64,000 bases of DNA, taken from assembly GCA_965113315.1 (NCBI GenBank), contig OZ220370.1. The stretch is one strand, 5' to 3'. Of the stretch, positions 25,152 through 52,314 are shown piece by piece. Position 1 is the first letter of the stretch, and each line of letters opens with the position of its first letter. The translations under genes were made by a program, and so were the position numbers. Below the pieces are notes generated by a model. That model saw only the letters and a program-made list of their open reading frames with translations, did not search any database and was not told the origin of the DNA. The DNA is from Podarcis vaucheri (Eukaryota).

Positions 25152-25268
25152 TAGGAATGTGGAACAGGGGTCTCGAGGGACCCGATCTACTCCTGCACAT
25201 TACAATACCATGAACCGAATGGATAGACATCGAATAATGGATGACCACAACTCCCCAGACAGAGAGAG
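25152..25268 (+). CDS. RIMS2: RIMS2 exon ((S)RNVEQGSRGTRSTPAHYNTMNRMDRHRIMDDHNSPDRE), NAGNAG acceptor
   Basis: ttcttCAG|TAG|GAATG...GAGAG|gtagat, 117 or 114 nt, phase 2-2. Confidence 0.94.
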
Positions 25269-25784
25269 GTAGATATTCAGATGTAAAAGAGTAAACAATG
25301 GAAACAATAATAATACATTTTAGACAAAACAGAATCAATTCAGATTGATATTTAAACCTCAGCACCTCCAGTTTACAAAAGTGAAATAGTTAAATTTGCC
25401 TAATTCTATTTCCTGCTATTATTATTCTGTATTACATATAAATAGTCCCATTGTTTGCATTTACTGGTCAGGAAAGCTTGAAGAAAGCATGCAAGAAGAA
25501 CATTTTAGCCAAATAATTGAATCAATTCTATGGGCCTTTTATTTTACCTTTGACAATAATCACATGTTAGAATGAAAACTTGGATTTATATATTGTATTG
25601 GTAGAGATTAGAAATATCCAAGGCTTTCCCAGTTTGATTATTATAATGCTACACTTTGTTGTTGTGCAAACACCCCTTCCATGCACAAATGGATGGGTTT
25701 TGCTTTTTAAAAAGGTGTTCACTCTTTACCAGCTCCCAGTGTCAGAACTCTGCTTCCATGAAAACTTCAAAGAAACCTCTAGCT

Positions 25785-25919
25785 CAGACACCCCCAAACT
25801 CGGCCCTCCAGATGTTTTGGGACTACAATTCCTATCATCCCTGACCACTGGTCCTGTTAGCTAGGGATGATGGGAGTTGTAGTCCCAAAACATCTGGAGG
25901 CCGTGTTTGGGGATGCCTG
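25785..25919. mobile_element. Short palindromic hAT-type MITE
   Basis: Near-perfect fold-back with CAG...CTG ends and an exact 8-bp TSD CTCTAGCT (25777-25784, 25920-25927). Confidence 0.9.
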
Positions 25920-28012
25920 CTCTAGCTGGACACATGATTAATATATAGAGCTGGGGGAGGGTGGGGATATGTTTTATGAGGAAGTACACTTTGTTAGTAC
26001 CTTTTAAACAGTGTTGCTTGAGAAATCTTTTCTATAGCAACCTGAGATCTACTGACATCTTGGAATTTTAATGAAATAGAAGTGAAGCAGAGATTGTAGT
26101 TGGCTTATGTTGCTTACTCTGCAACATTACCTGAGGCATTTTTTGCTTTCATTTTAAAAAATAGACAGGACATTTTTCACCTCATTAACTTGTGTTAATG
26201 AAAATTGAATTTGAAATGTTCACCTCCCTCAGTTTCATAATATACTTGGACTTCGGTATTTTTAACACCTTACCTAACAAGATACCAGTATATTTTCCAC
26301 AATCTTACATGTACAAAAAATTAAAGTTGCTTTTTTAAAAAAAGAGTGATATCATTAACAATTTTTCTGTTACTATTTTTCAAACAAAAAGTAATATTTC
26401 AGACTGCCCGAATTATTTACTATAATTTCTAATTATAAATGACAGAAGCAGCTAGTAGCAAGTTTTAACATTTTATAGAAAGTTCTTGTCTGGCAGGGAT
26501 TCAAAAAATCCTTATCCAAATTCCTGAAGTGCTTCTATGCATTCACAGGAGCTCTGTGGTTGTTTTCTTCTAGTTGGAATACCAGTCCCCCCCCCCAAAA
26601 AAAAATTCTGATCCACCAAATCCCACAGTACTCCCTATTAAAGGTACCTGATATTGTGTGGAAAGAGGGATGCAGCAAATGTTCTGTTGCAGGCGTAATG
26701 ATAACAACAACAACAACAATTTTATTACTTATACCCCGTCCATCTGGCTGGATTTCTCTAGCCACTCTGGGCGGCTTACAGTGCATATAAAAACATAGTA
26801 AAACATAAAAGGTTGTTTGGAGCCTAACTAAGAATTTAAACAGCATGACAGTTGATTTTGAGGTAAAGTTAAGGTGTCTTTCTCTGCTATTGAAGTAATT
26901 CAGTCTTAAAATGGTATAATTTGAAGTGGATTGTGCTTTTGAACTGTTTAGTTTAATTAAATTTCCTAAACACAAATTCCTCCACTGTGCTTAAATTTAG
27001 AATGCTAAATGCCTGATTCACCAGCACGTTAAACTGGACCAGGCAAATTTAAGCTGGTTAAATCTTTGGCTTTTTTGACATGTATTAGAGAGAGAGAGGG
27101 AGACAGACAGACATAATTCTTAAAATAACAAATAGCAGACTATGGGTAGCATATTCTAGGCACCATTTCCAGAATAAGAGACACATTCCAGAACTGATAC
27201 GTTCTGCTGTTCTTTTCAATTTAAAAAGCTGTGGCCTAGAGCACCGAAATACTCTTTTAAGCCATCACTTATAGATGGTGTGGCATTAGGTAAGATGCTA
27301 TCTTTTAATGGATGAACTCATGCTGCTGAAAGAGTATGCAGACAATTGAGTTAAAAACTCGACTTCAGGCAGATGCTTGGCAGAATTATGTGAACCAGAA
27401 ACTGCATACTCTTTAAGCCACTGTTGTTGGCCCGGTAAATTGTAATAGCTTGCCTATTTGTTCTTCTCCTGCTTATTCTCTGGGGCCATCAGAACAAAAT
27501 ATACCAAAGTTAAACAGATAGTTTTGAGTATTCTTTGCAGGCCTGGTATCAGACTTTCTTTATAACTGATGCAGCCACAGTGCTGCACATACTGATAAGT
27601 GTGTCAACAGGGACTTTCTCAACCCCTTTCCTTTTTCTTCAAGGACACTGAAAGAAAGGGCAAAACAAAAATCAGTTCACCAGAAAGAGAGAGAAAAAGA
27701 GCATTTTGTCCCAATAATCTGGGACTTGATTGGAATATATGGTACTGTTGTTCTGCCATTAGACACCAAAAACTAACTTTCAAAGATTGTTACTTACTCT
27801 CATGGTCATCATTACCTCAAAATAGTTTTATGAGCCTGAAAGCACCATCATTTAAAATAGTATATTTTCCTAAAAGTTATTAAGCTTGAAAAGTCTCTAG
27901 TGTGCATTAAAAATGTATTTACAAATATCCTCTGCATTGAGATATGTATTGTTCCAAAACTATGGTCATTTAATAGTGCATTAGCTGAAGGATGAAACAG
28001 CCAGCTTCTCTG

Positions 28013-28198
28013 TTTATTTTTTATACTATCCTTTCTCCAAAGAGCTTAGGTTGGTGTGTATGCCTCCCCTACCTTCTATCCTCAAAATAACCGTGTCAGG
28101 TAGTTTAGGCTGGCACAAGTAACCTTTGTGGCTTAGTGGGAATTTGAAGACAGGCGTATCCAGTCTAAATTGAGCACTTTAACCAGTGCACCACACCA
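28013..28198 (-). mobile_element. Degraded tRNA-derived (MIR/CORE-like) SINE
   Basis: Minus-strand A-box-like GGTGTGGTGCACTGGTTAAAG and B-box-like TTCAAATTCCC, a core-like GGTTATTTTGAGGATAG, and an AT-rich tail. Confidence 0.55.
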
Positions 28199-31100
28199 AA
28201 GAGTTTTTCAAAGGATCCATTTGCTTAAATAGTGCTGCCCAAATTGTCTACAAAATGGGGTGGCTCACTTTATAGAGCAAAAGAGACATGGAAAAGCTCT
28301 CCTTAAGGAGAGCAAAATTTGAGCAGTTTACCTTCACAAATTTGTCACCCCATCCCCCTGTCCCCCTGAGCTCAGCTGGAGTGGGGTGTGGCAAGGATGC
28401 CTCATTTGAGAGAGGTGCAGAGGGTTGCTACTAGGCAGATGACATTTTCTGTTGTGGCTCCTGATTGTGGAATGCTCTTCCCAAGGAGTCTCAGCTGGTG
28501 CCAACTTTGTCATCATTTCAATACCAGGTTTAAAATATCTCTGCTCCCAGATGTTTGGTTGTTTGGCTGTTGGTACCTGGTGTATTTTATTTGGCTGTTT
28601 AATTGATGGTCTTCCTGAGGTATATAGAGGTTAAAATGTTGTATTTATTTTTTTTTGTATTTTTATTCTTGTTGTCTGTTGGGTGTAAATTCCCTTAAGA
28701 TTTCACAGTGTATGGTGATTAATAAATAAAGTAGCAGCAGTTGTAGTAGTAATAATAATAATAATAATTGGAAGTAAGGTGTTTAGCTTCCCTTGCCAGC
28801 ATATTCATTTTGCTGTTGAAACTGAGATTGATTTATCTGTGATGGAGCAAACTTGAGTCTAAACAAATAGGATTTGCTGTTGTCACATCTGTTTTTGGCC
28901 TTAAAGTATAAAGAGCTAGGATTCCAGAATAAAGGAGGGAAATTGACATTGTCAGTACTTTGTCAAGTAAAAGCTTATTAGAAAGTTTCTGAGCAGTTGT
29001 AGTGTGTAGCATTACGTAACCACTTTGGGAACTCTGATAGAAAAACATGGTGCAAAATGAAGAAATAAAATACTGTATCATTTAGCAGTTTAACTAAGTA
29101 TATGGTTGCATTGGTGCACTAATTCTAGAGTCTGGCTGCAGCAAAAGCTCTGAGGGTATTTCTCCTCTTTAAGTCGCATGTGCTTCTTGCTGCAGTTCTG
29201 AAGTTGAGGCTGAAAGGGTAAGTGGCTATATGCTTACACTGGGAAGCAACATTTGGCCCTTTAAGTTGCTAGCTCATTGTGGCAGCAGGAGAATTAGGCT
29301 GCATATCTTTACAGAAGTAAGTCGCATTGATTTTAGTGTCAGTGCTGTAATTATTTATAGTATCCTGCTTTTACAATTCCGTTAAGTTCCAGATAATAGG
29401 ATCCCCCCCCCATGTTGAGTAAAGAACTAAGTGATTTTGAACTGGTGAAAACAACGTGAAATAAAGAGACATCGTCAACAATATTAATATACATTCTCAT
29501 ATATGAGAAGAAAGCATGACAGAAAGTATTTGAGGGTTGAATATGTCTTATTTTCTGCATAAGAAATGATAATTTTTGAACCAGTCTAAATGTGCTCAGA
29601 AATATCCAGATTTAATTGTATATATATTACCCTCTGGCCTTCGGTTGGCTATGTCTGATGAACCAGGGGCAGCTCCATGCCAGCAGAGCACTGGAGAATT
29701 ATTCCCTCTCCATTTCCCTTGTGGTACTCATGCTGCAGATTAGCTACTGTCCTTTGCAGATTGGCCACCTATCCATTGAAGGATATTGTGGCATCCCAAA
29801 CTAACACATTTTCTGTAGCAATGGTCCAAATATTACTTTTCCAGATGCATGAAACAATATTCTCTGATACAGATATAAACAGAATGACATGCTCATACAA
29901 TGGGGGAAGATAAAGGATAGAGTGTCCTATTACTCTGTAGAGTGAAATGCAATCAAGGTCCAGTGAAAAGGGTAAATGGTCTATTTAGCTTGAGTGTGAC
30001 CCATTCCTGCAGGTAATGAATTGGCAAATCAAGATGAATAGACAACCAACACCACTTTGCTGTGCCAATTTATTACCAGTAAGGTCACACTCTCTCGATT
30101 GGATTTTTTTTTACCCTAGAACTTGTTTGCATTCCATTCTACATAGTAATAGGTCACACCTGTCTCTTCCATCGATGAGTCCACAGGTATCTCTTGGTAA
30201 TAACATCTCTCTTCAGTCTATACATGTGTGGTGTGTGTAGATACACAAAGCCTTGTACTTAGCAGTTTAGCTGTTTATCTGACAAAGTGGATTCTTGCCC
30301 ATTAAAGGATCCAAATCTAGCATTACAGGTTACACCAAAAGCTACTAAATCTGTATAGCATGAATCCAATATTGTCTCATTCTATATGGAAGTATACAAG
30401 GCATTAGTTTGTTATTTATTAAAAACTGTTATGTTCTTCCATTCCACAGCTGTATAAAGTAGCTTACATCATTGCTTTAAACCAATTTCATAGAATGAAA
30501 CAAATTCATAAACAGAAAACTGTGAACATTAAAACTCAAAACAGCACCACCAAACCCAAAGCACATTCTCTTCCTCTGTCAGTCCAGAGGTTTGGGAAAG
30601 ATAGGATTTTTGAAGGAGTTTGTTCCGAAAGGGGGACCACTGACACTTGGAAAAGATTATTCCAGAAAGTCAGATTTGCTACTAAGAAACATTTGCTTCT
30701 TACTCTTGACTGTTTAGCTTCCCCAAATGTGTGTGTATGGGGGGGTATTTTCAGCTGGGTTCTCGGCTAAGATTTTTAGAGGCTTGAAAAGTTTCATGCG
30801 AATTTCTCCACAGTTGCCATAATCTTCTTAACCAAACTGATTTTTGGCATATCCTGATATTTCCAAAATGGGTACACTGACTGTGTGTATCAAATGGGCA
30901 GGCATTGTTCATATATGTATAATATAGTTCTGCAGGAACTTATGAGGCATTCTGTGAATATTACAAAACAATATATTTCCATTTACCAAGTATTAATTTC
31001 ACAAAACTGAGGCACGCTCCATTTGAAGCATGAAATCAGAATGAAATCAACACATTTTAATAGCTTTTCTTTGGGAAGAAGCATTAGTACAGTTGGTCCT

Positions 31101-33750
31101 CCAATAGGATTCTGTAAGCGTTGCTCTGAATATTTTCATGTACCTTTCTTCACTATTTATGTCTCATGCCTAATACAATTGAACCTTCTCAAATGTCTCA
31201 ATGACTCTGGGCTGGTTCAGAAATAACATTCCTGGAGCGGGGATGGTGATGTCATCAATTTAAAATGGCACCTTAGTTTGCATCTTCTACTCACCCTGAA
31301 GGCATTATAACACTCTGCTTGCTTTATTCAACACAAACACCTCTCTCTACTATTGGGGGCATCATTGTGCTGCATTGCTTTCAACCTTTCCAGTTCCAGG
31401 ACCCAGCTGTAGGTCCTATTCCCCCCCCCCCCCAAAGCTTGTATTTACATGGTGTTGCTGCTGCTGTTGCAACCTGCCTTAGGAATGGATCCAAAAGGGA
31501 ATAAACAAGGGTGGGATTGACTTTTAGCTATGCCCAGGGAAAAGAAATACTAATGGATGCTAACTTTCAAAGATTTCTGGTGTGCTCTTGTAATGAGAAG
31601 AAATATAGGTTAAAATTTCAAATTGCTGTGTTTTAGCTTATACGAACCTGAAAAAGTAGCAGTAGCTGTTCTTTACAACAATGCATATTTGCAGTATTGG
31701 TGTCCTCCAGAACTGTCTCTAGGTCTGATATTCACAGATTCAGTAAAAGCTTAGTTAGGTGCAAATTAAGTTCAAGTCAGAATAAGATCAGGAGAGCTAT
31801 GAATGTTGCTGATAAAGTCTCAAATTGATTTATTTATAATAGGGATAAGGTATCAGGAAAGGAAAGAGGAACAAAATCACCCACACCTTCTGGGTTCAGC
31901 TTAAGTGAACTCATTATTTTTCCTTTGCTAAGGCATCAGTCCTCTGAGTAACTGTTTTCACTGAGAGAGCTGACAAATCCAATAATCTATGGAAAATTAC
32001 CTGCATAAACACAGAATTGTATTACTGCCCAGTGTAATTTCTTGAATATAGTGGTCCTCGTTATGGTATGCTCCATCTTGATAAAGGCAGGATATATACC
32101 GAGGTTGCATTTTCCTGACTCAGACAAGTCAAGTCCTGCAGAATGGCAGAGCTTAAATCTCTATGCAAGCTTTAGCTTTAAGTATCTCCCGAGACCAACA
32201 AATCATGCTGCATTGCTGTTCATACTGTGATGAGAGCTACTGATTTTGATCTGCCAAAATGAGAAATTTTGAAATGACAGGCTACTAGGACATGATCCAT
32301 GACAATTTATGCTTTGAGAAAGAAATTGCTATAGAAAGTCACCTTGATAAAACCAGTACCAAACTGGAAAAAAAGTTTTGTGATAGTGTTTCCAAAATAG
32401 AAAAAGACTGAAACCAGCTTTCCTCTTAATAGTTGCCACTGGAATGATGCTAAAGCAAAGTGTTATAATAATTTAAACTGATATGTACAGCTATATTTTG
32501 ATTCTGGGTCGCCTTTCCTAATCTACACATAAATTATTCTGAATCTAGCAACATTCCCATCTCACTTTGTCTTAAATATAAAATGAAAATATTGTTTTTA
32601 TAACTCAAGAGATGAATGGTGACATTAGAAAGTTTGATAGTGGGGTATCTTGAATTATGCATTTTTCTATTTGTTACTGCCTCACCTTGTTCTCTCCCCT
32701 ACACCACCACCATTGTTTCTAATGGAAATACCATAAAATGGTACCTTGTATACTCAATCCGTTATTGCTACAATATTTGTCGTATCATGAAGAAAAGAAC
32801 ATTCAATATTTGTTTCTCACTTTTAGCCAATATAAAAAGGGCTAGGTATATGAGTAGCAATGGGTGAATCAGTTTTTTTCTAGTCTGTGTCAGTATTCAC
32901 TCATAAATCCGTTTCATCTCATTTCCATAATAATCTATGAATATATTTTTAAATACACACCAAAAAATTCACAAATTAAATATTTGATTTTTATTTTAGA
33001 ATTACATTTCTAAATGTATTTTCTCCTGACATACCTACTGCTAAATGCATATTTTCCTAATGCATATTTCTAAATGTATTTTGATATGTTTTGGAGCCTA
33101 GAACCACAATGGAATATTTGAGAAGTATAAAATCTGAAGGCTAACTAAGTACTGATCTAGACATTAGTCCAAGAGGTGCTGATCAGATGAGTTCATATCA
33201 GAATTTGCAAATACCGGATTCATCAAGGTTCCTTGTGATACTTCAGATCTTGACCGTTGGGTTTAATTACTTCTAGAAAGGTTGAGGGTAGGAAAATGCT
33301 TATGCCCCACCTACTAGGGAGTGCCATTTACAGCCTGATGTGGTGGGGTTTGGGGAACTGTTGGTGACAGGATTTCCCATGTGACTGGGAAGCGCTTTGT
33401 GTACCTTCCAGCCATGCAGGAGGTTGAGAGATGATCGAGACTAGGGAAGCCGACCAGCATTCAGCCTGGCTCCCTGAGGGGGCAGAGCTTCAGGAATGGA
33501 CCTGACTAGAGACTGCCCACTGTCAGGTACATTCCTGGAGCATATAAGAGAAAATATTATCAGCTCTTCTTTATTTGGTTATCAGCCAGTTTAACGTCCC
33601 ACCCTCTTCTCTGTACTTCAACACTTGCCTTCTTGCATAGCAGTCATCACAACTTGAGCCCTCACTCTGGGAATGTCCTCTTTCTTCTGCCTAAACTTGC
33701 TTAATTCCAGGAATTTGATGCCCCCTATCTATATGAACTGTGGGCTGATT

Positions 33751-34275
33751 AGGTAAAAGGTAAAGATAAAGGACCTGGATGGTTAAGTCCAGTCAAAGGC
33801 GACTATGGAGTTGTGGCACTCAGTGGCGTAGCGTGGGTTGTCAGCACCCGGGGCAAGACAAGTAATTTGCGCCCCCTAACCCGTGGGTTTTAGTAGGGGC
33901 AGAGAGCTGCGAGTGTGAGCACGCCCCCCCAGATGTTGCGCCCGGTGCGGCCGGCCCCCCCTGCACCCCCCACGCTACGCCACTGGTGGCACTCATCTCA
34001 CTTTCAGGCTGAGGGAGCAGGTGTTTGTCCACAGATAGTTTTCTGGGCCATGTGGCCAGCATGACTAAACCGCTACTGGTGCACAGAGGACCGTGATGAG
34101 TGCCAGAGTGCACGGAAATGCCGTTTACATTCCCACCATGGTGGTACCTATTTATCTACTTGCACTGGCGTGCTTTCAAACTGCTAGGTTGGCAGGAGCT
34201 GGAACAGAGCAACGGGAGCTCACCCCGTCGCAGGGATTTGAACTGCCAACCTTCCAATCAGCAAGCCTAAGAGGT
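33751..34275 (-). mobile_element. Sauria SINE interrupted by a hAT MITE
   Basis: The (ACCTTT)-type tail reads as ggtaaaaggtaaag. The body is collinear with the 56741 copy once 33821-33993 is removed. Confidence 0.88.
33821..33985. mobile_element. Young 165-bp hAT MITE
   Basis: Perfect 17-bp TIR CAGTGGCGTAGCGTGGG and exact 8-bp TSD GTGGCACT (33813-33820, 33986-33993). Confidence 0.95.
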
Positions 34276-34409
34276 TCAGTACATAGAATTAAGCTCCCCC
34301 ATATTTCTAGGGTTTACAGATGTCAAATGCTTGCACTGGGGCAATAGAGGAAGATTATCACAGTGCAGCATAGCAAAGTTATAAATTGTTCCTCTAGGTG
34401 ATAAAAATA

Positions 34410-34751
34410 CAGTGGTGCCTCGCAAGACGAAAATAATCCGTTCTGTGATTCTCTTCGTCTAGTGGTTTTTTTGTTTTGCGAAGCAAGCCCATTGACGGAT
34501 TAGAGGATTAGCGCTATTAGCGCTATTAGTGGCTTTTAGCGGCTTATCAGCTTATCGGATCAGCTGATAAGCGGCTTAGCGGCTTAGAAAAAGGGGGGGA
34601 GGGGAAAAACCCGCAGGAACTCGCAAGACATTTTCGTCTTGCGAAGCAAGCCCATAGGAGATTCGTTTTGCGAAGCACCTCCAAAACGGAAAACTCTTTC
34701 GTCTAGCAAGTTTTCCATCTTGCGAGGCATTCGTCTTGCGGGGCACCACTG
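34410..34751. mobile_element. Tc1/mariner (pogo/Tigger-like) MITE
   Basis: TIRs CAGTGGTGCCTCGCAAGACGAA / TTCGTCTTGCGGGGCACCACTG with TA TSDs and internal TTCGTCTTGCGA repeats. Confidence 0.92.
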
Positions 34752-34965
34752 TACCATTAACATTTCCTTCAGAGTTTTTCGGTATTCTTTGCATTTTTTC
34801 CATGCTTTTGTCATGTTTATAGAATTATACTGATTAGAGACTATGATTTTGTAGCTGCTGTGTTGTCATGTCGTTTGTCCTTCAGTTTCCTTTTTAGGAT
34901 GTGTGTTCATCAGTCTTCATTTCATTGTCTTACATTTTCATTTTTTGTTTCTGCTATGCTTTCAG

Positions 34966-35031
34966 TCCTTATGTCAGTCTGCCTTGGTCTCAACACACTC
35001 AGTCCATTGACTACCATCATAGAAATGCCAG
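34966..35031 (+). CDS. RIMS2: RIMS2 66-nt cassette exon (SPYVSLPWSQHTQSIDYHHRNAR), phase 2-2
   Basis: ctgctatgctttcag|TCC...GCCAG|gtatct. Resembles the recalled mammalian RIM2 insert (HFLTLPRSRYSQTIDHHHRDGR). TGCATG at 35071. Confidence 0.85.
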
Positions 35032-35649
35032 GTATCTGTTTTCCTGTGTGTGTGCCTCTGTGTGTATAAATGCATGTCCCTGCTTGCACCTATATTTTTA
35101 CTTCACTCTGTTCAGGTCACTGAAGGGTATTGTAGGATTGCTTTATAGGCAAATATTTAGAAGATTAGTAGGTGTTATTTTTAAAGACTGAAAACATTCA
35201 GCTGTTTGTTTGCCTAACCATACTCTACTTGATAACACCCGCTTCCTGTTATTGGCATACATGAAATAGCAGTTGATTTATGAGGTTTTGTCTTTGAACT
35301 TCCAAATGTTAGAGTCAGGTCATTGATCATTCCGGAAAAGGTATATGGGTCACACCCACACCATATATTTAAGTGTATTTTAAGTGAATTTTGTGGATGT
35401 GACCCATATACCTTTAAAGCACATGGCTACCCCCAAACGAATTCACAGAGCTACAGTTCCCGGTACCTTTAACAAACTACAGTTTCTAGGATTCTTTGGC
35501 TGAAGCCACGTGCTTTAAATGTGTGTAGTTTCTAGACCTATATATAACATTTCAAAAAGTCACTATCCCAGGCAGTGTTGACAACATTCAAGTAGGTTAA
35601 TTTCCATAATGAAAGAATAAATGATGTTACGTGAAGGACAAGTATTAAA

Positions 35650-35990
35650 GCTGGTGTAGTGTGTTATCTAAACGGGTGAGCTGTGACCCAGGGAAGACCT
35701 AGTTGCTGGTGTAGTGTGTTATCTAAACGGGTGAGCTGTGACCCAGGGAAGACCTAGTTGGAATCTCATCTGAGCTATGAACTCTGTTGGTAGCTTTACA
35801 TGCACATCTGTCTCTTCGCTCCAGTGCTTCCAGCTGTAGTTTGGGGCTAATAATGCTACCCACCTTACATAATAATTGTAAGGATTATTGCAATATGGTA
35901 CATGTGAAGTCCTTTCAGCTCTCAAAACTACAGTACTATATAAATGTTGTGTACTGTTATTGCTGTTGTTATTATTATTATTCTTAATTA
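35650..35990 (+). mobile_element. tRNA-derived CORE/MIR-like SINE with a tandemly duplicated 55-bp head
   Basis: 35650-35704 equals 35705-35759 exactly. A-box-like TGGTGTAGTG, B-box-like GTTGGAATCTC, core-like AATAATG..CCTTACATAATAATTGTAAGGATT and a (TTA)n tail. Confidence 0.65.
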
Positions 35991-36707
35991 TTGTTATTCC
36001 AGAGACTGGGATGCAAGCAGAGTGCCTCATGAACTGCATGTTTTTGTAGCTTTGACATATGGTTTTCACTGTCAGCCTCTGACAGTAATGAACACTTCTT
36101 AGAAAGGAATAGAAGTCTTTCAGACTCGGGTCATGCAGTTATTGTCTCTAAATAGGTGGTAATGCTGTTTGTATCTTGTGGATGTAGCAGCAGGTACAAA
36201 TTTATATCTCCCTGGAGTGGGATAGTTGTGTGAATGAGAGAACATTACATCAAGGTCAGCACTGAAAGTGGCTTTGGACGTTACTGAAGAAGCGTCATCA
36301 ATAAATGCAGTTACTACCTACGGTAATTCTGCATTTGGATGGCAGTGCTTCTTGTAATATTTGAAGGTGAACTTATGCAGAGGAACTTGGGCAACCTACC
36401 ACTTCTGCATTTTGCCTGTGTGAATTTTGATTGGACTATCACCAAAGTCACTTGTGTGTCACTTCTGGAACTGTTCTGAGTTTCTCTTATTCTTAGATTT
36501 ACAATCTAAAACCATGATAGTGCTTTATCACTTTGAGAATGCTTTGCATTAACCATAAACATTTATACATTAGCATGCTTTATATGTACATCTGAATTGG
36601 TCTTTTTCCCCCTTTCTTTGTCATTTGCTTCTCTGTGTTTACCTTTGTGTCTCATTTGTGTACATGTCTTAACTGTAGCTTCATGTTCATCCCTTATGTT
36701 TTGGCAG

Positions 36708-36815
36708 CAAGGATCACTCAATGTATCCTATCTTTTGCGAAGATGCAGTCAGATTACTTCGATCCCGTACGATGTGCCGTACCTATTCTGAGGGTGCTTA
36801 CTATGAATTTGAGAG
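36708..36815 (+). CDS. RIMS2: Candidate RIMS2 108-nt cassette exon (SKDHSMYPIFCEDAVRLLRSRTMCRTYSEGAYYEFER), phase 2-2
   Basis: ttttggcag|CAAG...GAGAG|gtataa. Stop-free in the required frame and CpG-rich relative to its flanks. Long pyrimidine/YCAY-rich upstream intron. Confidence 0.75.
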
Positions 36816-38604: not shown

Positions 38605-39059
38605 TACTTAAGTATATATCCATGTATACATTACTCCAAAAGAGGAAATTCCCAGATCAAAAATAACAAATTTAAGTAACTGTTAGGTTCTCTTTAGGTT
38701 CTCTGTCATGTGTTATTGCAACACCCACTGAATTCCCCTTTTACTGCCATGATACAGGCCTTATACATTACTATGAGGTGTTGTAAGCGAGAAATAAAAT
38801 TAACATTTCTCTGTGTTTTTTTATCTTCACAATCAATTGCTCATAATGACTACGAGCGATCCTCAGATTATTTTTTTGAGTTTTGGGGTACAACATAAAA
38901 TGCAAGGGCAAGGTTACCTTGCTGTATGTGCACTGCCTTGCCTTAAAATTTACAAAATGGACCAGGGCAATTAGATAATCAAAACTTAAAACTGTCCAGG
39001 GGGCAAAAGTACTGGCACATTCAGAGATGCCCTATCTGAAAACTTCAGTTCTATCCCCA

Positions 39060-41620
39060 TTATTGAATTCCCTGGGAGTCATGGTAGCTGAGAGGCTATG
39101 ATGGAGATGGATCCTGATCCTCAGATAGATGAAATCTTGAAAAGGATCATATAAGACTTCCCTAAATGATGTGGCTCTGAAGACAACTTCCAAAATCCCT
39201 CAGTAAAAGAGGTTGTGGAAACTGCCAGTATTATATCCAGCAGAATTAATTCCTGAAAGAAAATATTTGATACCATTTAGGTTTCACTTAGAGAGCTGGA
39301 TAAAAGTAGACTGCTAAACTGCTTTCAAATCCATTGAAACAAATACCTGGACATTAAGGATGTGCCTTGGATACCTGGGCCCAGTATTGTTATCCTTTCC
39401 TCTATCTCAGAAGGGAAGAACAAGAGTTGTTTTTTAGCAAAGATCAGGCTCCATGGAATCTTCTTTCCAGTAACAAAGGGATTCCAGAGATAGCTTAAAT
39501 ATTTCCCCCCCAAAAAATGTGCCCACCTTGTAAAGCAGATTGCTTTTTACAGAACATCCCTGGTAGGTAAGAGTGATGGAATGTAGTGGTTGCAGATGAT
39601 TTACGTTTCAGTACACCCTTGCATTCTGCATACTTCAGCAGTGGCATTTGCATTGGAGGTCCTGCTGGTTGTTTAGTGACTCAGGAACTAACTACTGCCA
39701 AACCAGTCTTGAGCATTCCACATCCAGAAAATTGAAGATAATTTATCAGTTTTAGGAAGATGGATGTTGTTTTGTGGTCACATAATTACCATATTGTTGA
39801 CAATTTGCTAGGCAGAAAAACGAAAAAAATGAGCAAACTCCTCACAGCTCAGCTCAATAAATCAAGACAATGCAAGATCAAACAGTGGTTCTGCTTTAAG
39901 TTTGTTTTCTAATTAGGCTTATGCAAACCAATTCCCCAAGTTTGACTGTAATAGCTAACTATGGTTTCTTAAAAAGTGAAAACAGAAAATTTATATCTCT
40001 TTGTGACCACAAAAGTGGGGGAAGAAAGAGTACGCAAGCTTGAGGCTCACCATAGCTTGTTAAGATAGAAGGACAGCAGCATCTGAATGGGACTATGATC
40101 ATTCAATAACTTTTCACTATCTCCTAATCTTTCCTGGCATATGGTTAGATCACTCAGGGCAGATATGGGGCTTGTGCCGTTTGGTTCCTTTGATTTTCTA
40201 ATGGAACTTCAAGTTAAGTATTACATTACCTAGAGTACAGGGTTGTTGTCAAAAACATTAGATGCATGTTTTATATGACTTTCCCCCCTCCTTAACATCT
40301 ACCGTAGTTCTCTGTTATGGCCTCTGTATAGTTCCACAGATGGGATCTGTAGCTCTGCAGGCCGTTCATTGAGGATTTGGCATCTGTGGCACTCAAACTA
40401 CTGTGATAAATGTTTGAAGATGTGAGAATAAGGTAGCCCAGACCAAGCAGCTCAGATATCCATGCCACCATTGGATCTGAAGGTCTCAGATCTGATAAAC
40501 CAACAAGAAGAATTACCGTTTCATTGTGAGATTTGGCTGATTCAGGCTTCATATACATGACAGTGTATATGCAGCTGCAGACATATGGGGGGAGGTTTAT
40601 AGAGTATAAACATCTACTAGCCAGGTTGTCTCTTCCCAAAGATGCATCAACTTGCATACAGCAACAAGGAGGGAGCAGAGGTGACACTGGGCACTTCAGA
40701 TATCCAGCAGTGCCTATTTTGCCACTAAAAATAGGACTACATGGGGAAATGATGCTACAGTGGTGCCTCGCAAGACGAAATTAATTGGTTCTGCGAGTTT
40801 TTTCGTGTAGCGAATTTTTCGTCTTGCGAAGCACGGTGTCGGAAAAGTTTTGGAAAAGCTTCAAAAATCACCAAAAACCTCAAAAAAGGCTACCACACCG
40901 CATTCTATGAGTTGCTCCTCAAAGTCAAGTCGCAACTGTATTAACAGTGTTAAGAAAAAGGAAACAAACTTGCAAGACGTTTTCGTCTTGCGAAGCAAGC
41001 CCATAGGGAAATTCGTCTTGCGAAGCAGCTCAAAAACCGCAAAACCCTTTCGTCTAGCGAGTTTTTCGTCTTGCGAGGCCTTCGTCTTGCGGGGCACCAC
41101 TGTATTCACATCAATTTTTGCTGGAGATAAGCCCCTCTGACCATTGAAGGGCCTCCCCACCGCCAGTGGAAATTGATGCAAATAGCATGTTTTTCTGCTG
41201 GGGATGTAGTCCCCATTCCTATGGGAATAGATGCTTTACCAGGAATCTGAAAGACCCATGGCTTTTCCAACATGATAGGTAAGCTCAACATTGATCAAGG
41301 GCTCAACATTGTGTTGGACCATTTGATTCTTACCATTGGGTGCATTAATTATGCAAAACAATTTCTGCTCATTCTACCCCTACCTGCTTATTTCTAAGCA
41401 GACCTCTCTACAAACAGCTAAGCATACAGAGGATTTGAACATATTTTGACCTGGCAGAAAAATGCATTAGTTGACAATTTGGGAAGGAGCACCTTACTCT
41501 CTAAAAAGTCTAGAAGTTTCTATGAACTGGCTTATCCAGATGGAAATCCTATATGAATGAATTTACAGGCAGCTACTCAGAGAACAGCAGTTACGGGTAA
41601 ATGTAACTCTGTTTTGTACT
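39060..41620 (+). mobile_element. Possible highly degraded DIRS-like retrotransposon remnant (host of the 40758 MITE)
   Basis: Ends in GAGAACAGCAGTTACGGGTAAATGTAAC, which resembles DIRS termini. A similar motif is at ~45345-45390. No intact ORF, and the boundaries are uncertain. Confidence 0.3.
40758..41102. mobile_element. Tc1/mariner (pogo/Tigger-like) MITE, same TIR family as 34410-34751
   Basis: TIRs CAGTGGTGCCTCGCAAGACGAA / TTCGTCTTGCGGGGCACCACTG with TA TSDs. Confidence 0.92.
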
Positions 41621-42712
41621 TACGCCAAGTCCTGATTTCATTATGGCATGTGTTTCCCTGCTCCATATAATTGTCTGCACTACATGCAAGCATGTACATG
41701 TGACATTGTGTGTCCGCGTTGCGGTGGGCACCCACAATCCCAAGGGTGAGTTGGCACCCTGTCTTGAAGCTTCACCCTGCTACTGTCATTGCTATCCATG
41801 CCAGCCACACAACCCGCAAGCCACATACCCATCAGTCCCCCTTGTGTGGAATAGCCCTATGCATGTACATTGTTATGCACATGGGGCCCTTTAACATGGT
41901 CACTAACACACAAATTGCCAATGGAAGGGCAAGGCTAGTCAATGCAACCCCCTCACAGGTGCTTTCAACTATGGCCGTGCCAAAAGCTGTCAAAAGTTTC
42001 CCAAAAATATTATCCCCTGAAAAAAACAGGGACAAGCTTTCTGCCTTTCAGAGGGAATTTATCTGGATTTTTTTTTCCAGTGGCGGGCAGGGAGGTTTGC
42101 AGCTTACAAAGTGGCTGCAGCATGAAGATCTCTCTGCATTCTGCCACCATCCATGTTTCCTGGAATGTTTTGAGAGTGACATCTTGTTGCATTGCATCAC
42201 TCCCAAGGTTACATTTAAATCCTCAGGCACATTACATGGTTAAGTAATGTAAGTAGCAGCACCTCTCCATGAAATTTTTTTTGGGGGGATTTCTTCTCTC
42301 TTCACCTCCCTCCGAAAAATGTCAGAGGTGGTTTCATTTCACACTCATCTGCAAATGGTAGAAAAATGAATATTAGACTCAGTTATACTTTGAACCTTTG
42401 AGGAAGTTGTCATGTGAGCTTTATTAAAGACATCAGAATATATGATAATTTAAATTAGATTAAAATTTAAATTAGATGAAACAGAGGAGAAGAGGAAATT
42501 GCTGTTTTCAGCACAGTACTTGTTCTTTTTATTGTACATTTCCCCCTTTAGGTATTTTTGATGTTTGCTAGACTGCCTCATGCAGCAGGAAAAGGGTTGG
42601 ATGAACATTACATAATGGTCATTATCTTTTGTGATAAAGCAAGAAAAAGCATAGAGCACCTAAGGCAATTCAAAAATGTCTGAAATATCTTTGCTGTTTA
42701 TTTTATGTTCAG

Positions 42713-42784
42713 GAGGAATAGAAAGGAGGGAAGAGTGCCTATAACATATTATGATGACACTGATATTTCCCCTACTCCTGAAAG
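42713..42784 (+). CDS. RIMS2: Candidate RIMS2 72-nt cassette exon (RRNRKEGRVPITYYDDTDISPTPE), phase 2-2
   Basis: ttgctgtttattttatgttcag|GAGG...GAAAG|gtattt. Stop-free with a purine-rich start. TGCATG at 42961. Confidence 0.75.
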
Positions 42785-43956
42785 GTATTTTGATTCATAT
42801 AGTAGATGTAGATAAGAATCTGTATTAAAGCATTTTCTGAGCACCCCTGCTGTAGAATTTTGAAATAGCTAAGAATTGTGATACTTGTGTTCTTTGTGCA
42901 ATATATTATTCCAAGTGATCTGTTATAAAAGGCTTGAACTAGCAGTGAGTAGTTTAGTATTGCATGAGCCGCACAGTACTTTTTCACCTAGAAGATATTT
43001 ACTGGTAGAATGTGTGCACTGCAGCCAATTTCTTCTTAACACTGTTACTTTTCTCTTATGCCCATACCTTTCCCCCCCACAAGTAACAATGTCACAAATC
43101 TCTGGGGGTTTTTCTGGATATCCCTACTAAGCATCTTCTTATTTGCAGGGGGTGGAGATATGTAGGCATTTTGGGAATCAATCCAAAGCTCTGTGCTTCT
43201 GCATTGCATGCATAGCTGCAAAAGTGAGATTTTGCAGAAACAGGAGATAACAGTGACCTCTGCATAGGGGTGATCTATGCGTACACTGGAGTTAAGTATG
43301 TGTAGTGATGCTACCAGTCTGTGAAACTTCTCTTTAAACATAGGCTTCTCCCAGTCTAAGACTTAATCGGTGCTGCACAAGTACTGTGAAAGGGCACTGA
43401 TGGTCAGCTGGCTGTTCAGCCAATTCCAGGATAGTTGGTTGGATTGACAGGAGGCGGATGAGCTGCTTATTATTCCTTGAAGGTTACCTCCAACCATGCC
43501 TGTTCTAATATTTGTATCAGTTTGGTTGATGAGAGCTTATGGGTAGTTGAGACTAATGCACTAATATTAGAAACAGGTCACTTTCTCAGCTGCCTGCTAA
43601 GTAGTTTTTGCAAGCCTTGATAGTCTTAGCCACTGCTAAAGATGCTAAGGATGTTCCCCCACCCCAGTAGCATATATTGCTACCTGTATATGGATGCTGT
43701 TTCACTGTTGTGAGAGAATTCTGTATCTGTACATTTGAGTAATTATTATATGATTTGGCTAATTGCATAATAGTAGCATTATTCTGATTTTTTGCTGTTA
43801 TTATTAAACATCACACCTTATGCAATTCCTGAACCAAAATAAATATTTCCCTACACCCAAAGTGCTTATGATCATGGACATGGTAAAAAAAAAAAGGCGG
43901 GGGTTTATTTCTGAATACTTTTGAGGATTTCTCCTATTATCTGCTAACATAAAAGT

Positions 43957-43958
<2 letters not shown>

Positions 43959-44002
<44 letters not shown>
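43959..44002. repeat. (AC)n microsatellite
   Basis: About 20 AC units, imperfect at the 5' end. Confidence 0.95.
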
Positions 44003-44004
<2 letters not shown>

Positions 44005-45070
44005 TTAAAGATCCATTATATCTTGTTTTAAATTCATTCTTGAATTTTATTTTCATGAAAGCACATGGTTCTGATTTTATAAGTCAACCTACTTATTTCT
44101 GTAAAAGTAATATGCCATTGGTAGACATAGCAAAGCACATCTATTGTCATATCTTTTCATTGCTTTATTTCCATATTTTCCCCATCTTATGAAAATTTTA
44201 CAATTTTGAGTAAGTCGTTTGGTTGCTGCCATGCTGCATAAGTTACACTGATGAACATAACTTGGTTAGGTCCATTAATTTCACTGGGCCTATTGTGAAT
44301 ATAACTTAGTTGAATATGACCCCAAAAATTCCACTATATTTTATAAAACGCACTATTCTTGCAAACAGTATTCACATAATGTTATATATTTTTAATTGCC
44401 CCAGTTGAAATATTTGTTACTCACAATGTGTGTATGGTTAGGCTAAAGAATACACATTATTATGCCATCAGTAAATGCAATGTATTATTATGTGTTTCAT
44501 GGATATATGCAAAGCATTTATACACTACTGTTGCTGCCAGCACATCTGTATGTACCCCATAGTTACATGTGGCATACAAACCAGGATTGGCCATGGCTTC
44601 CGTCTACATGCATAGAAGTTGGCAGAATAATTTGCTGCCCCATAGAGTATGAAGTGGCTCTCAGTTTCACAGCACTATCATGCCAGTGATACAGATATAT
44701 GGTCTGGTGCATATATTTAAGATTGGAATGGCTGTTTGGTCATACATATTTTAACTGTAAAAAGAAAAAGGGTTCTTTGACTATATTCCATAAAACACAA
44801 GTCTTATCAAAACAATATAACACAGAAAACCAACAAACAAACCATAGACTGAATATTAGAAGATAATAGGTCAAATGGGCTGACAGTGATTCAGTGTACC
44901 AGTATGTTAAGGGGGAACATACATATACATCCATTCATTGAAAGAGATATACAGAAAACATTGGAAATAATTGCCAGATTAGTCAGTCAAAAATATGTTT
45001 TCATGAAAAGTTTTGATATGTAAATAGCTTCATCTTTATAACATGTCTTTATTTTAACTGCATTGCAAAG

Positions 45071-45133
45071 GTATTACAATGGTGCAAGTTCATGGGCAGA
45101 TCATGTAGTCAATGGTTCAGCTGAAAACTATGG
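45071..45133 (+). CDS. RIMS2: Candidate RIMS2 63-nt cassette exon (RYYNGASSWADHVVNGSAENYG), phase 2-2
   Basis: ttttaactgcattgcaaag|GTAT...TATGG|gtaagt. Consensus donor, stop-free, two TGC motifs just before the acceptor. Confidence 0.78.
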
Positions 45134-46724
45134 GTAAGTAAAGAGTGCAGTGTTACACTTCTATGATTAAAGACATGTACTCATAATTTAAATGTAGTGT
45201 TATTTTATTAATGGGTTTCACACCTGATTAAGTGTCATTTTTTTCACTAGACCTAAGAGGGTTAGGTTTTAATATGACATGTCCATTTTCTTCTTCTTTC
45301 CATGTTGCATCACACGCATAGTTTGTTTAATTGTATGTAGATCTTTCTCAAAGAACAACAGTTACAGGTAAGCAAACCTGTTTTCTTTGAGCAGGTTTCC
45401 ATACACAAGCATATGTACACGTTGTGTCCCTGTATCTGAACCTCTTTTGTAGAGTATGTTCTGTTCATTTTTAATCCAAAATTACCTGTGCACTGACACT
45501 ACATTTAAATTAATAAGGCACATTGTATCCCTTATTTCCAGAGTTAGTTTCAACCTCATCATGGGAAGAGAGAGAATAGCAAATATGCTTCAAATATTTA
45601 TATGAATCTGGGTTTTTAATTGGAAAAAGTTTCATAGAAGACAGATGACACAGTTTGGAGGCAGTGAAAATGATGAAGCAGCATAGTAGGAGCTCTTCAG
45701 GTGAAACACTGTCCATCTCCAGTTACGTGTGTTGATTGTAGTGTCAGCTGATAGTGGTCAATCAACAGCAGAAAACTTTGGAATGTTCTGATTAACAGCA
45801 GTCTGTTGGAAACCCAAATGACTCTGCTCTGTATGATAAAGGCTCTCATACCAAGAAGGAAGTTGTGAATTGTGAACAGCCTTTTGTTGCAATTTATGTT
45901 GTAGTGGTGCTATAATTTACCTTTCCTCCCTGGTGTTTTTTTTTTTTTTTTTTGCATTTTTTCATTATTGGTAAACTTCTGAATAGTTCCAAACTTTATG
46001 CCACTCATTTATAGGCCACCAAAAGCTTATATAGTAGCCCATTTCTGTGTTTCAGTAGAGAGAAAAATGAATAAAGGATCTGCACACTAACATGTCGACA
46101 GTCCACTCTGGCAGGTGTTTGCAAACTGCTCCACCAAAAAAAAATTAAAAAATTCAAGAGAAGTTAAGATCCTTTTTAAATTTTGTTCTGCCAGACAAAT
46201 TTGCCATGCAGATATATTGCTCGGGGAACAGGAAAATTGAAGAAGCAATAGATATTGTTTAGTGGGTCTCGTTTCATGCATCCCTAGATGGTGTGAACAG
46301 CATTTGATGCAGCTAGAATAACTGGATATTTTTGAGTTTTTTGTTGTAGTTTCTTTTCATGGCACTTGGCTACATCATTTTCTTTCCAAATATTATGATA
46401 CATACCTTAACGCTGAAACCAGCTTTGTTCAATGTGATATATGAGGTGTTAGGGGAATGGGAATACCACTGGTGGGGACACATCGTGCTCCTTCTGTGGT
46501 AGTTTGTCCACCTTTGGCCCCTACCCTGCACTTGCCTGTGGCTCATAGAAACTGTCAGCATAAGACAGTGAATGGTTTCAGCTGGCCAGCCAAACCAGGT
46601 GAGAGTAACAAATGGGTCTCTAATCTTTGATGAGTTAGGAGCTTCCTTTGCACGCAAAGACAGGCTCTGGCAGATTGAGCGGATGAGACCAATAGTGGTT
46701 CCAACCGTCAGGAAGAGTTTCTGC

Positions 46725-47045
46725 ACATGCGGTAGAGGGAAGTGAGCAGTAGATGGGGCTCATCAACCTGGGAAGGTAGCCCATCTAGGAGAAGTAAAAC
46801 TCTGTTCCTAAATCCCTGCTGCCTTGCGGAATATCTTCAGGAGAAGAAGAGGCTAAGGAGTGAACGCTGCACAGAAAATCCAGAGCGGAGCTCCTAAGAC
46901 AGTTGGTTGGTGCCTTGTATGCCGCCTCCTGGCAACTCCCGCAGCCAAGCTGGCGCCAAACATATTGCATCAGTGAGGCCGAGAGAGGGGTCTTGTTGTC
47001 TGGGCAGCCCAGCACCTTCATACACACTGCCCAAGCTTACAACCC
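46725..47045. mobile_element. GC-rich interspersed repeat, family unassigned (possibly RTE/LINE-derived)
   Basis: Sharp compositional island with retained CpGs in an AT-rich intron. No splice-compatible exon found. Confidence 0.4.
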
Positions 47046-50000
47046 AGTGAGGTTCATTATTGGGCCTATAAGTTATTTTATACTTTACTTAACTGGCAGT
47101 AGCAGGTGAATGAGAAATAAGAAAAATTAAAGATATTTGGGAAGAAATAGGACTGTCTTTTACTACTTGTGTTGAGACTAGAGCATTCTGTAATAGATGA
47201 TTTAAAAAAAGTCAAAATTCTACATATCATATAGCATATAAAATGTACAGAAACAGTGCAGAGGTAGGATACTAGGAAAGAAAAGAATCATATTCTCTGC
47301 CTTACATAGAGGCTGGATGCATAAATCTGTTCATTTTTAATTTCTGACTTTGCTTATAGGCAGCCTTGAAGCAAATGGTGGAAAATTTGTTAAAACTAAT
47401 CTAGGAAACACTTTATGTATTTTTAAAACACTCCTAAAATTAAACCACATTTTTCCTGCCTATTTAATTAGCTGTTTGGATTTAACATAGTTTATGTTGG
47501 AGTTTTAACTTCAAGGGAAGAAAATATGGAGAAAATACTTCTTATAGCTTTTAGAAATACTTTTGAAATTAGGAATTTTCACAAATAGCTTGCTGTGATA
47601 GATATTTTGGAAAAACTATTTACTAATATCATAGACTTTTGGGATATACTGCTTAGAAGCCATCACAAGTACATAATGGTGAAAATGAAATCTTATGCAG
47701 ACAGATTCACTTTTTCTGGTTTGCCATAGCATACATTCGTCATATATGGTCTCTTTAAGACATTATTTTATTATCTCAATTCTATATTCAGTATATCTGA
47801 GCATACTTTTGCTAATATTACATATATGATGGCTTAATTTTATAATGTTAGTACATAGGAATTTTATGATTATATTATGCACTATTAGTGACTGTGGTCC
47901 GCTTTAAAATGAAATCTCAGTTACTCAGTATGTAATTCTTTTAAAATTGCTTTGTTGATAGCTTAATACTGGTGTTTTACCTTGGTTAAAAAATAGAAAT
48001 ATGAGTTGTTTGTGTGTAGCAGTGGTTAAAGATGGTGTGCTAACAAAGGATATTGTGTCTGTGACCAAACAGCAAATTTCCAATAGCTAGTAGAAGAATA
48101 GCATGTCCAAGGATTGAGATCCAACAGCCTTCCACAGATACGGACAGGTACTTCCAGTAAAAAGTAGCTAGAATAGCCTTGCACTTGTTACTCTTAGGTA
48201 TTTGTTTGTTTGTATTCCTGTTGCAGTGCAATCAGTGTCTCTAGAAGTAGAGGAAGCCTTAAATGGTCATTAAAATGCACCATTTTCATGCTGCATTTTT
48301 GTGTTTTCATTTCTTTGTCACTGACACATTCATTGCTTTAAGTGGCTTCATTGTTTTAGCCCTGGCTGCTGCCATTACTTGTCATGTACCATGGACAGAA
48401 AACCAAATACTGTGTCTAACAAAGCAGATAGCACCTGGCCTAGGAAGCAATGAATTGTCTGTGCTCATGCATCATCATGTTTCCTAATTTGCTCATTGTA
48501 GCAATATATATAATTTTAAAACTTTCTATGTTAACGGAGTTCCCTTAATTATACATAACTTTGATGTGCAAGATTCATTTTCTACTTATTTTTAAAAGTT
48601 ATGTGAATCTAATCAGCTTAGGATGTACATAAAGATTTTGTTTAGACAAGATTATTGCAGTGTGACACAAATAGATCGTTTTAGCTTGTCAGGTTAGATC
48701 TTAACTAATGTAATTTAAGTTCTAGTTCTGATATGTCTGGTGGATTTGTAAATTCCAAGTTCATGATGACATTTGGCCTAGTAAAACTATGCAGAATCTA
48801 CCTGCTGGGTTAAGAAACCCAGCTCTAGTCAGTGTACAGGGAAATAATGTACCGGTACTTGGATCTCTCACAAGTTGACAAAAAAATAGAGTGAGGGTTC
48901 TTTCCAGTAAAGATTGATGTTGAAGTAATTATTGTTCAAATAGTGGGATGGCAAACACTTGTCTGTAATGCAAAAAGAGTTTGAAAACATATTGGGTATT
49001 ACTTTTCATTGTGATTGCAATCTACTTTTATTTTTACATAGCTTTCAGCAATTAAAGAAAGAAATACTAGTTGTGTGACTGAATATCATTAGAATGACTT
49101 AAAATTAATCACATGTGCTTGAAAAGCTTAACATGTGACAAGGCAAGGATGTTCCACTGAAAGGTATAAAGAGTTTTATAATTCAGAGAGCTATTCAAGA
49201 GCTATAGGTTGGATATTGAACTAGTGTGAAGTGTATTGATTGATAATGTACCCATAAATGACTCAGGAAAAGTTGGCTGCATTAGAGAACATAGAATCTA
49301 TATCTTCACAGATCCTTTTATGAATCCTGCCCTCAAGAGCATTATCTCTTTCATATATGGAGTACCTTAGTAAAATGTGTCTTTAAAAAGGTCTCGCTCT
49401 TCTTAGACCATCACTTTTAGTGTCCTGTAGATGGAAAAAGAAAGCCTTTGGCTGTGGGGGGGTCTTCTTGCATTACCTTTCCAGTGTTGGAGCTGCTGCA
49501 GTGGAATTGCTTTTGGTGCCATGAGAATGACACCAGAAGTCCCAGAATACACAAGAGGAGACTTCATAAGAGCTCCTCCTGGAAACTGCGCTGATGTGTA
49601 AAGGAACCACAAATTCTCTCCTTTGGTCTTGGGGCTTCTGACATTGTCTTCTTGATACAAGAAGGGAGAAATTGCAGAAACTCCCACACTGTGGTGGTAA
49701 AATGACAAGCGGCCCTTAAGTAAATTTTACATAAAAGATTTTTTAAGGGGAAACCTCCCCCCCCTCCATCAAGACCTGTAGTTATAGACTTGACACTTCA
49801 TTGCTTCCCCGTAAATATACACCTCTCTGTTAAATGCAGCATTAGCTAAGGTGACCTTTTTTTGTTTATCCTTGACATTAAAGAAGTGAAACAGTGGATG
49901 TATTGGCAGATCAAGCTTCCTGTTCAGAAAGTGAATATATAGATCCAGAAGAAAACATGAGGTAATCTTTGTGAGTTTGTCTGAGGCCAGCTGTGATACT

Positions 50001-50886
50001 TCCCTGATAGTTAGTATCTCCTGCTGATCATGTGTTCCAGTGTACAGTATCTGCTTGTTACGTGCTTTAGATTAAGGCTATTGGAGGATGGTATTATTCT
50101 GAACCTGTCTGTGGGGCATTTATTTAGTACCTCATTGAAAGCCTACAACCCTAAAAAATGGTTTTGTGTGATCACATTTCTGAATTAACTTTATTTGAAA
50201 ACTTTTTGTTTGAAAACCTTTTAGGTATTCTTTCATTATGCTGATATACTAACCATTTGATGTGATCTATATTTTCCCCTCAGAAGTGCAACTAGTATTC
50301 CTGCATAGGTCATATTCAGTAGCAGATAATTTTCATCTGCTTTAAAAAAGAGGAAAAAAACAGCAACTTTCCTTGAATAAAGTTAAGCCTATTGGTTGAC
50401 ACCAGCATCTTTTGAACGGAAAACATTATTAATGAAAATATCAAGATCCTGAAGTCTTTTACTCATATTTAGTTATCCTTATCAAGTGTACTGACGTTAA
50501 TGACAACCTTACTGACTGAGAGTGCAAGTTATGACCTTACTTTTAAAAATATTAACTTGGCTTTCTATTTTTAGTCAAGCCAATGGTTTTTATTCTTAAT
50601 TCAGAGAGTCTTCACAAAACAGTAAATGACTCATTCTAATGCAGGATATCCTAGTACACAAGCTGCAGATTATGACATTTAAAATGTTTTCATATACCAA
50701 ATTATTAATAAAGGGACAAACTCCCTTCATACGTCTTCTATGTTATCAGGAAGCTAACTAAAACAAAGAACGAAAAAGCTGTTAGAAATGTACATAATGT
50801 TGATCATCTCCGAACCCAGTATGATGCGGCATAATGCGTAACTATAGATAAAGGTCAATTGAGCTGCTTTTTGACTAACATTACAG

Positions 50887-51060
50887 GAATTGGGGACCTA
50901 GACTACCATATCAAAGATCCAGATCAACAGAACAGCGTCCTGTGGTAGAGCGGCCCAGCCCCCGCTCTCGATCCACTGAGCGTCCTGACTCAAATCTCAT
51001 GAGATCGATGCCTTCATTAATGACGGGAAGATCTGCCCCTCCCTCACCTGCCTTATCGAG
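50887..51060 (+). CDS. RIMS2: RIMS2 exon (RNWGPRLPYQRSRSTEQRPVVERPSPRSRSTERPDSNLMRSMPSLMTGRSAPPSPALSR), phase 2-2
   Basis: gactaacattacag|GAAT...TCGAG|gtgaaa, 174 nt. NLMRSMPSLMTGRSAPPSPALSR is characteristic of RIM2. Confidence 0.95.
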
Positions 51061-52204: not shown

Positions 52205-52314
52205 GTCACATGCTCGTACGGGGTCTGTCCAAACAAGCCCATCAGGTACTCCAGTAGCAGGACGCAGGGGTAGACAATTGCCACAACTCCCACCCAAGGG
52301 AACACTGGAGAGAA
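52205..52314 (+). CDS. RIMS2: RIMS2 exon with the RIM-BP SH3-binding motif (SHARTGSVQTSPSGTPVAGRRGRQLPQLPPKGTLER)
   Basis: gtcctgtag|GTCA...GAGAA|gtaagt, 110 nt, phase 2-1. Contains the RQLPQLP motif. Confidence 0.97.

Follow-up and report, generated by a model that had tools for sequence, protein, structure and literature searches.

We analyzed a 64,000-nucleotide stretch of DNA from the lizard Podarcis vaucheri (assembly GCA_965113315.1, contig OZ220370.1; hereafter, the window), which covers the middle of a lacertid RIMS2 gene on the + strand. Between the C2A domain and a proline motif that binds RIM-BP, this gene contains an array of eight exons (A to H; 753 nt, 251 codons). All eight are real, frame-preserving coding exons, and we consider it fairly probable that they are spliced in limited and regulated patterns that would change the length and the short-motif content of a likely disordered linker. 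This array is most probably the known alternatively spliced linker of RIM proteins in a longer, non-mammalian form. Judging from protein alignments, all eight exons are present in the same order in database models of RIMS2 from squamates, a turtle and birds (e.g., Macrochelys, P0166). The array itself is already annotated, and the likely loss of exons C to G in mammals is the only part that we did not find in print.

The array is composed of exon A (positions 25152–25268, 117 nt), exon B (34966–35031, 66 nt), exon C (36708–36815, 108 nt), exon D (42713–42784, 72 nt), exon E (45071–45133, 63 nt), exon F (48073–48147, 75 nt), exon G (49884–49961, 78 nt) and exon H (50887–51060, 174 nt). All lie on the + strand and all are symmetric (phase 2-2). 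The first-pass annotation of the window had described an array of six exons (A to E and H), whose sizes, AG...GT ends, divisibility by three and open phase-2 frames were all confirmed. As it proposed, they encode parts of the RIMS2 linker that lies between C2A and the RIM-BP motif, and they are conserved outside mammals. Exons F and G had been overlooked and were revealed by mapping database proteins onto the window. That the 108-, 72- and 63-nt exons (C, D and E) are missing from the list of open reading frames is true but carries no weight: it is an effect of size only, because the in-frame open stretch around exon C spans 54 residues, which is under the 70-residue cut of our own list. In non-mammals the exons are not unannotated: they sit in reptile and bird gene models.

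The gene was identified by aligning annotated proteins to the window with tblastn: squamate RIMS2 proteins align to it exon by exon with 94–100% identity. Relative to lacertid RIMS2 models the array exons are 97–100% identical, with at most one residue changed per array exon carried. One P. muralis model is identical to the window at about 242 of 243 whole-codon residues (up to two changes) and isoform X1 of Podarcis raffonei (XP_053251441.1, P0150) differs by at most one residue per exon. Exon B is identical at 20–21 of 21 residues in six lacertid models, and exon C encodes a valine in the window where six lacertid models present an isoleucine. The window also contains an exon of the C2A domain (8206–8377, +; tblastn, and Pfam C2 on P0150), followed by an exon that encodes the end of C2A and a proline-rich motif matching PRM2 of RIM1 (9229–9382, +; tblastn, motif core as given in PMC13294362). 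The full-length models that match both the C2A exon and the exon with the RQLP motif present the order zinc finger-PDZ-C2A-C2B. The similarity to RIMS1 proteins is much lower (5–12 of 38 residues for exon A and 12–17 of 36 for the PxxP exon, versus 97–100% for RIMS2 models). Domain order and closeness to RIMS2 both identify the gene, at the level of sequence, as RIMS2 (RIM2 alpha/beta).

The eight exons are part of a run of nine consecutive phase-2 introns. This run starts after a 157-nt exon of phase 1-2 (22101–22257, +) and ends at the PxxP exon, a 110-nt exon of phase 2-1 (52205–52314, +) that carries the motif RQLPQLP, a RIM-BP ligand by homology (PRM3 core as given in PMC13294362). Using the frequency of phase-2 introns in human (0.2107; PMC3632108), such a run has a probability of 0.2107^9 = 8e-7 under independence, much too low to be explained by independent chance. 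However, consecutive exons of one phase have been described as typical of disordered proteins (PMC3632108). All 45 ordered joins between the upstream exon and the PxxP exon encode Arg, Ser or Gly and never a stop. The earlier claim that no combination creates a stop at a junction is thus correct for 45 of 45 joins, but this property is trivial: a stop at a phase-2 junction requires an exon ending in TA or TG, and AG ends are the ordinary donor consensus. Stop-free joins are indeed expected, because AG ends are common outside the array too (8 of 10 exons).

Some splice sites of the array are weak. On a rough home-made matrix, the acceptors of exons E, F and G score 2.3–3.4 (2.3 for E), whereas the seven exons that precede the array score 8.2–16.0; the donor of exon C is weak as well. 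This is in line with exons that can be skipped. Alternatively, the weak sites could indicate that the middle exons are artefacts of gene prediction in intron sequence, the more so as a simple splice-site scan also yields look-alikes such as an open 111-nt phase-2 candidate at 30120–30230 that finds no protein support. We regard this explanation as highly improbable. Indeed, the look-alikes match none of 386 proteins, unlike the array exons, and turtle, birds and teleosts have conserved counterparts of the array peptides in the same order and frame as lizards. Tandem NAGNAG acceptors were found at exon A (25152/25155), where both forms occur in models (357 and 28 of 386), and at exon G (49884/49887), where the short form occurs in none of the 386. 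The hexamer TGCATG is present within 300 nt downstream of two of the eight exons (0.09 expected per 300 nt); this enrichment of splicing-factor motifs near the array exons is too slight to interpret. The stretch at 29174–29223 resembles an exon: a strong donor follows position 29217, and a GCATG is present. It may be a poison exon or a chance resemblance; the exons that it could give, of 44 or 22 nt, would disrupt the frame and are matched by 0 of 386 proteins.

We further analyzed the conservation of the array outside squamates. In a turtle and three birds, the identity to the window is 30–34 of 38 residues for exon A and 45–48 of 57 for exon H, and it reaches 27–29 of 35 for exon C, 16–19 of 20 for exon E and 21–22 of 24 for exon F. 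At the peptide level, exons C, E and F are as conserved from lizard to turtle and birds as exons A and H. Identity is lower for exons B (9–11 of 21), D (11–13 of 23) and G (14–19 of 25). This conservation identifies the array exons as old coding exons. A protein search with exon C returned 367 matches, and the best 120 consist of 119 named squamate RIMS2 proteins and one unnamed protein; with exon F, the best 120 of 288 matches come from squamates, one turtle and birds. The totals themselves (367 for C, 288 for F and 5545 for the exon A search described below) are not usable as evidence, as queries and length ranges differ.

More divergent counterparts were found in teleosts, where the comparison used representatives of 50% identity clusters (20 of 150 were named). 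Exon C has a counterpart in RIMS2 of pike, Eleginops and seahorse (11–15 of 35 residues identical; shuffle P ≤ 0.001), exon E in Eleginops and seahorse (7–8 of 20; shuffle P ≤ 0.001) and exon B in arowana (shuffle P = 0.001). Lamprey and hagfish proteins gave no significant match to exon E. A hagfish match to exon F (7 of 24; P = 0.0005) was discounted as one among 230 comparisons. The ESM Atlas gave no usable match to exon C, a result that bears on neither absence nor novelty, and a search of solved structures returned one match at chance level (E = 0.35). A scan of metagenomes was not used: it yielded three weak loci out of 116 pattern matches and none of them spans the exon.

We then classified the exon content of 390 named amniote proteins (167 squamate, 102 turtle or bird and 121 mammalian), leaving out the unnamed protein P0001, a partial bat protein and non-amniote proteins. 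Only 12 of the 256 possible patterns were observed: eight in squamates, five in turtles and birds and two in mammals. The most common patterns are all eight exons (161 proteins), all but F (64), A and H (63), A alone (58) and A to E with H (23). Exon A is present in all 390 proteins, of which 121 were selected on A and 269 were not. In these amniote models exon D is never found without E, and exon C is never found without both D and E. The array is likely an alternatively spliced linker, given that exon skipping is seen in database models, and the patterns in these models are better explained by exons linked in blocks than by exons that mix freely. Two properties of the data weigh against reading regulated splicing from these patterns. 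The samples were picked on a single exon (C, F or A), which makes the number of patterns a lower bound; in addition, the models are automated predictions, in which long-range combinations of exons need not exist as molecules and from which abundance cannot be read.

It had been proposed that the six exons then known mix freely, giving up to 2^6 variants; if all eight exons were spliced independently, the number could rise to 2^8. Such a scheme requires joins that keep the frame and create no stop, as all 45 do. However, with 12 patterns among 390 proteins (a lower bound, given the biased sampling), a constant exon A, exon D tied to E and exon C dependent on D and E in amniotes, free mixing is not what the models present, and we consider it improbable. 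At the opposite end, exons A to E could be nearly constitutive in reptile and bird neurons; the linker would then have a fixed, longer length, mainly F, G and H would vary, and the phase symmetry would be a relic. All five exons are carried by 163 of 167 squamate and 97 of 102 turtle and bird proteins, but both sets were chosen for carrying C or F. Moreover, models that skip some of these exons exist: six lack B and C (A--DEFGH), one lacks B, one lacks B, C, F and G, and one has A and E only. Among teleosts there are models without A, and models in which C is present alone. A nearly constitutive block is therefore rather unlikely in our view, although less so than independent splicing, and splicing in a limited set of regulated patterns remains the preferred reading.

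The position of the array relates it to several known systems. Wang and Sudhof reportedly defined in 2003 a 'splice site B', a spliced region of mammalian RIM1 and RIM2 between C2A and PxxP, and a paper of the same year by Johnson et al. is said, by its title, to concern the splicing of RIM1. The array lies in this same place, exons A and H are shared with mammalian proteins and H is either included or skipped in mammalian models too; the difference is that exons C to G (396 nt) are found in no mammalian RIMS2 protein sampled. Heavy splicing of this linker is known, as the first-pass annotation said, and PMC13294362 describes RIM1 as extensively spliced. The array exons are not described in the available parts of PMC10169678, PMC6960213, PMC7273530, PMC7917623, PMC7456537, PMC13294362, PMC4387716, PMC7397853, PMC4494069, PMC3632108 and bioRxiv 10.1101/500991. 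We found no literature on these exons or on their loss in mammals, with subscription papers and splicing databases mostly outside our reach.

The linker of RIMS1 presents some likeness to the array. A stretch similar to exon F was detected in the bowhead whale (P0292; 9 of 24 residues, P = 0.001) and in salmon (P0273; P = 0.03), and a stretch similar to exon H (21 of 57) lies downstream of the F-like one, in the order of the array. This likeness is at the peptide level only, and the F-like stretch is likely paralogous. Exons B, C, D, E and G gave no significant match to four RIMS1 proteins. Like the symmetric exon runs described in disordered proteins (PMC3632108), the array has at least three consecutive exons of the same phase (eight), is free of Pfam domains and is spliced in models; it differs from them in bearing no sign of recent tandem duplication. 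None of the 28 pairs of array peptides is similar at P < 0.1. At the DNA level, 3 of 28 pairs reach a nominal P < 0.05 with low scores, and the exons may descend from an ancient tandem duplication.

Two other types of neural exons were considered and set aside. Arrays of the Dscam type also group alternative exons with compatible frames within one neural gene, but mutually exclusive use does not fit the 161 of 390 models that carry all eight exons together, nor are the exons related to each other. Neural microexons are defined by a length of at most 51 nt (PMC4317164), which the array exons (63–174 nt) exceed. A microexon exists elsewhere in the window: a 27-nt exon of phase 1-1 at 12709–12735, directly after C2A, is matched by 128 of 386 proteins. 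A neural RIMS2 microexon is mentioned, with its identity unspecified, in PMC7273530 and PMC4387716.

In mammals, only exons A and H of the array appear in the 121 classified proteins; H is present in 63 and absent from 58, so that it is a cassette in mammalian models too. Exons B to G had no match in 122 mammalian proteins, the absence of B being uninformative given the bias of the query. This agrees with the earlier remark that the 108-, 72- and 63-nt exons are not known from the canonical mammalian protein, within a sample that is biased against some joins. The numbering of human variants is consistent with this observation. The variants R962, W1042 and R1170 are placed on the clinical reference transcript (PMC7273530), and isoform X2 of Przewalski's horse, a form with A and H, has Arg, Trp and Arg at exactly positions 962, 1042 and 1170. 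The human numbering therefore fits a form with only A and H. Furthermore, the 29 isoforms sampled from Przewalski's horse are numbered by decreasing length, and B to G are missing from X2, which has 1596 aa; at most one model of this animal (X1) is therefore longer than X2. These comparisons suggest that the five exons C to G (396 nt, 132 codons) were probably lost or silenced in placental mammals. As for exon B, we take it to have a mammalian counterpart, a form that the sample could not show.

The composition of the mammalian sample tells against this loss. The sample was obtained with exon A of muntjac as the query (best 120 of 5545 matches) and consists of proteins of laurasiatherians only (horse, donkey, Przewalski's horse, hippopotamus, muntjac, peccary and free-tailed bat), with no monotreme, marsupial or amphibian. 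Because the query ended on the Arg of the exon A junction, proteins in which A is spliced to B, C or F receive a lower score and do not reach the best 120. Exons C to G could thus persist in mammalian RIMS2 and be rarely used, unannotated or missed by the 121 proteins from few laurasiatherian species, and we regard this as a real, if lesser, possibility. Isoforms X1–X15 of donkey are indeed outside the sample, and the comparison was made on proteins rather than on mammalian genomic DNA. However, joins of A to D, E or G are not penalized by the query and were observed in 0 of 121 proteins, and the numbering of the horse isoforms by length allows for hardly any longer form. No mammal is found among the best 120 of 367 matches to exon C or the best 120 of 288 matches to exon F. 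Finally, a human PhyloCSF survey of new exons (PMC6886504) does not mention RIMS2 in those supplements that can be searched, although a gene may go unnamed in tables that list coordinates.

The inclusion of these exons would have consequences for the linker. Exon inclusion would lengthen the spacing between a fixed tryptophan upstream of the array and RQLP from about 70–130 residues to about 280: the two are separated by 71 or 131 residues in the mammalian models, as opposed to 281–284 in full lizard, turtle and bird models. Exons B to G add no SH3 site, because they contain no PxxP. Inclusion would also add motifs conserved in teleosts. Exon C encodes the stretch EDA[IV]RLLR and, after it, hydrophobic-x-R-x-x-S-[ED]; this holds for 257 of 271 proteins, with many isoforms of one species among them. 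The first stretch is predicted to form an amphipathic helix (helix moment of 0.74), and the serine of the second, which follows the basophilic kinase consensus, is a predicted basophilic kinase site. In exon E, the motif W-x4-NG[ST] is conserved, and exon G is acidic (net charge −8). A role as motifs is suggested for exons C, E and F because they are strongly conserved, while B, D and G appear more spacer-like. The choice of exons may tune both the length of the linker and its content of phospho-sites, as the first-pass annotation supposed.

By analogy with RIM1, inclusion may alter the spacing, partner binding and condensate behaviour of the scaffold formed by RIM, RIM-BP and calcium channels. 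The counterpart region of RIM1 is IDR2, which lies between the two SH3 ligands PRM2 and PRM3; the enrichment of RIM1 in droplets and condensates scales with length, and RIM-BP2 enlarges the droplets of RIM1 PRM2-PRM3 fragments (PMC13294362). Two observations are less favorable to this mechanism: IDR2 alone contributes weakly to condensation (PMC13294362), and disorder is weakly tested by FoldIndex, which is negative for seven of the eight exons yet also for the folded C2A control (−0.033). In three full-length models, Pfam detected no domain beyond the zinc finger, PDZ and C2 families.

Several other features were observed in the window. An assembly gap of 134 N lies upstream of the array (20784–20917). 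A second array is located 3' of the PxxP exon and contains symmetric phase-1 exons at 57365–57406 (42 nt, with a GC donor) and 61012–61101 (90 nt), matched by 32 and 120 of 386 proteins, respectively. The intron between exons B and C carries a perfect two-copy tandem repeat of 55 nt (35650–35760), either a recent duplication or an assembly artefact. Two intronic open reading frames (34069–34347 and 56731–57042) share a similar C-terminal peptide, which points to copies of one interspersed repeat. Rfam gave no match in the window.

RIM2 anchors vesicles and calcium channels at release sites, and in human the loss of RIM2 leads to a synaptic cone-rod disease (PMC7273530). Exons C to G probably form an ancient block, one that mammals have lost or silenced. 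More tentatively, mammals may have deleted or silenced a five-exon block of 132 codons that reptiles and birds kept, with two exons whose motifs are older than the split of ray-finned fishes and one exon that survives in mammals only in RIM1. This block might provide a docking helix and a kinase site for a partner or a control still used at non-mammalian RIM2 synapses, including ribbon synapses, and given up by mammalian RIM2. If the loss of these fish-conserved exons is true, RIM2 of mouse and human would be a reduced form of the protein. Studies in zebrafish, chicken and lizard would then concern a scaffold with extra motifs, and exons C and E would be baits for its partner.

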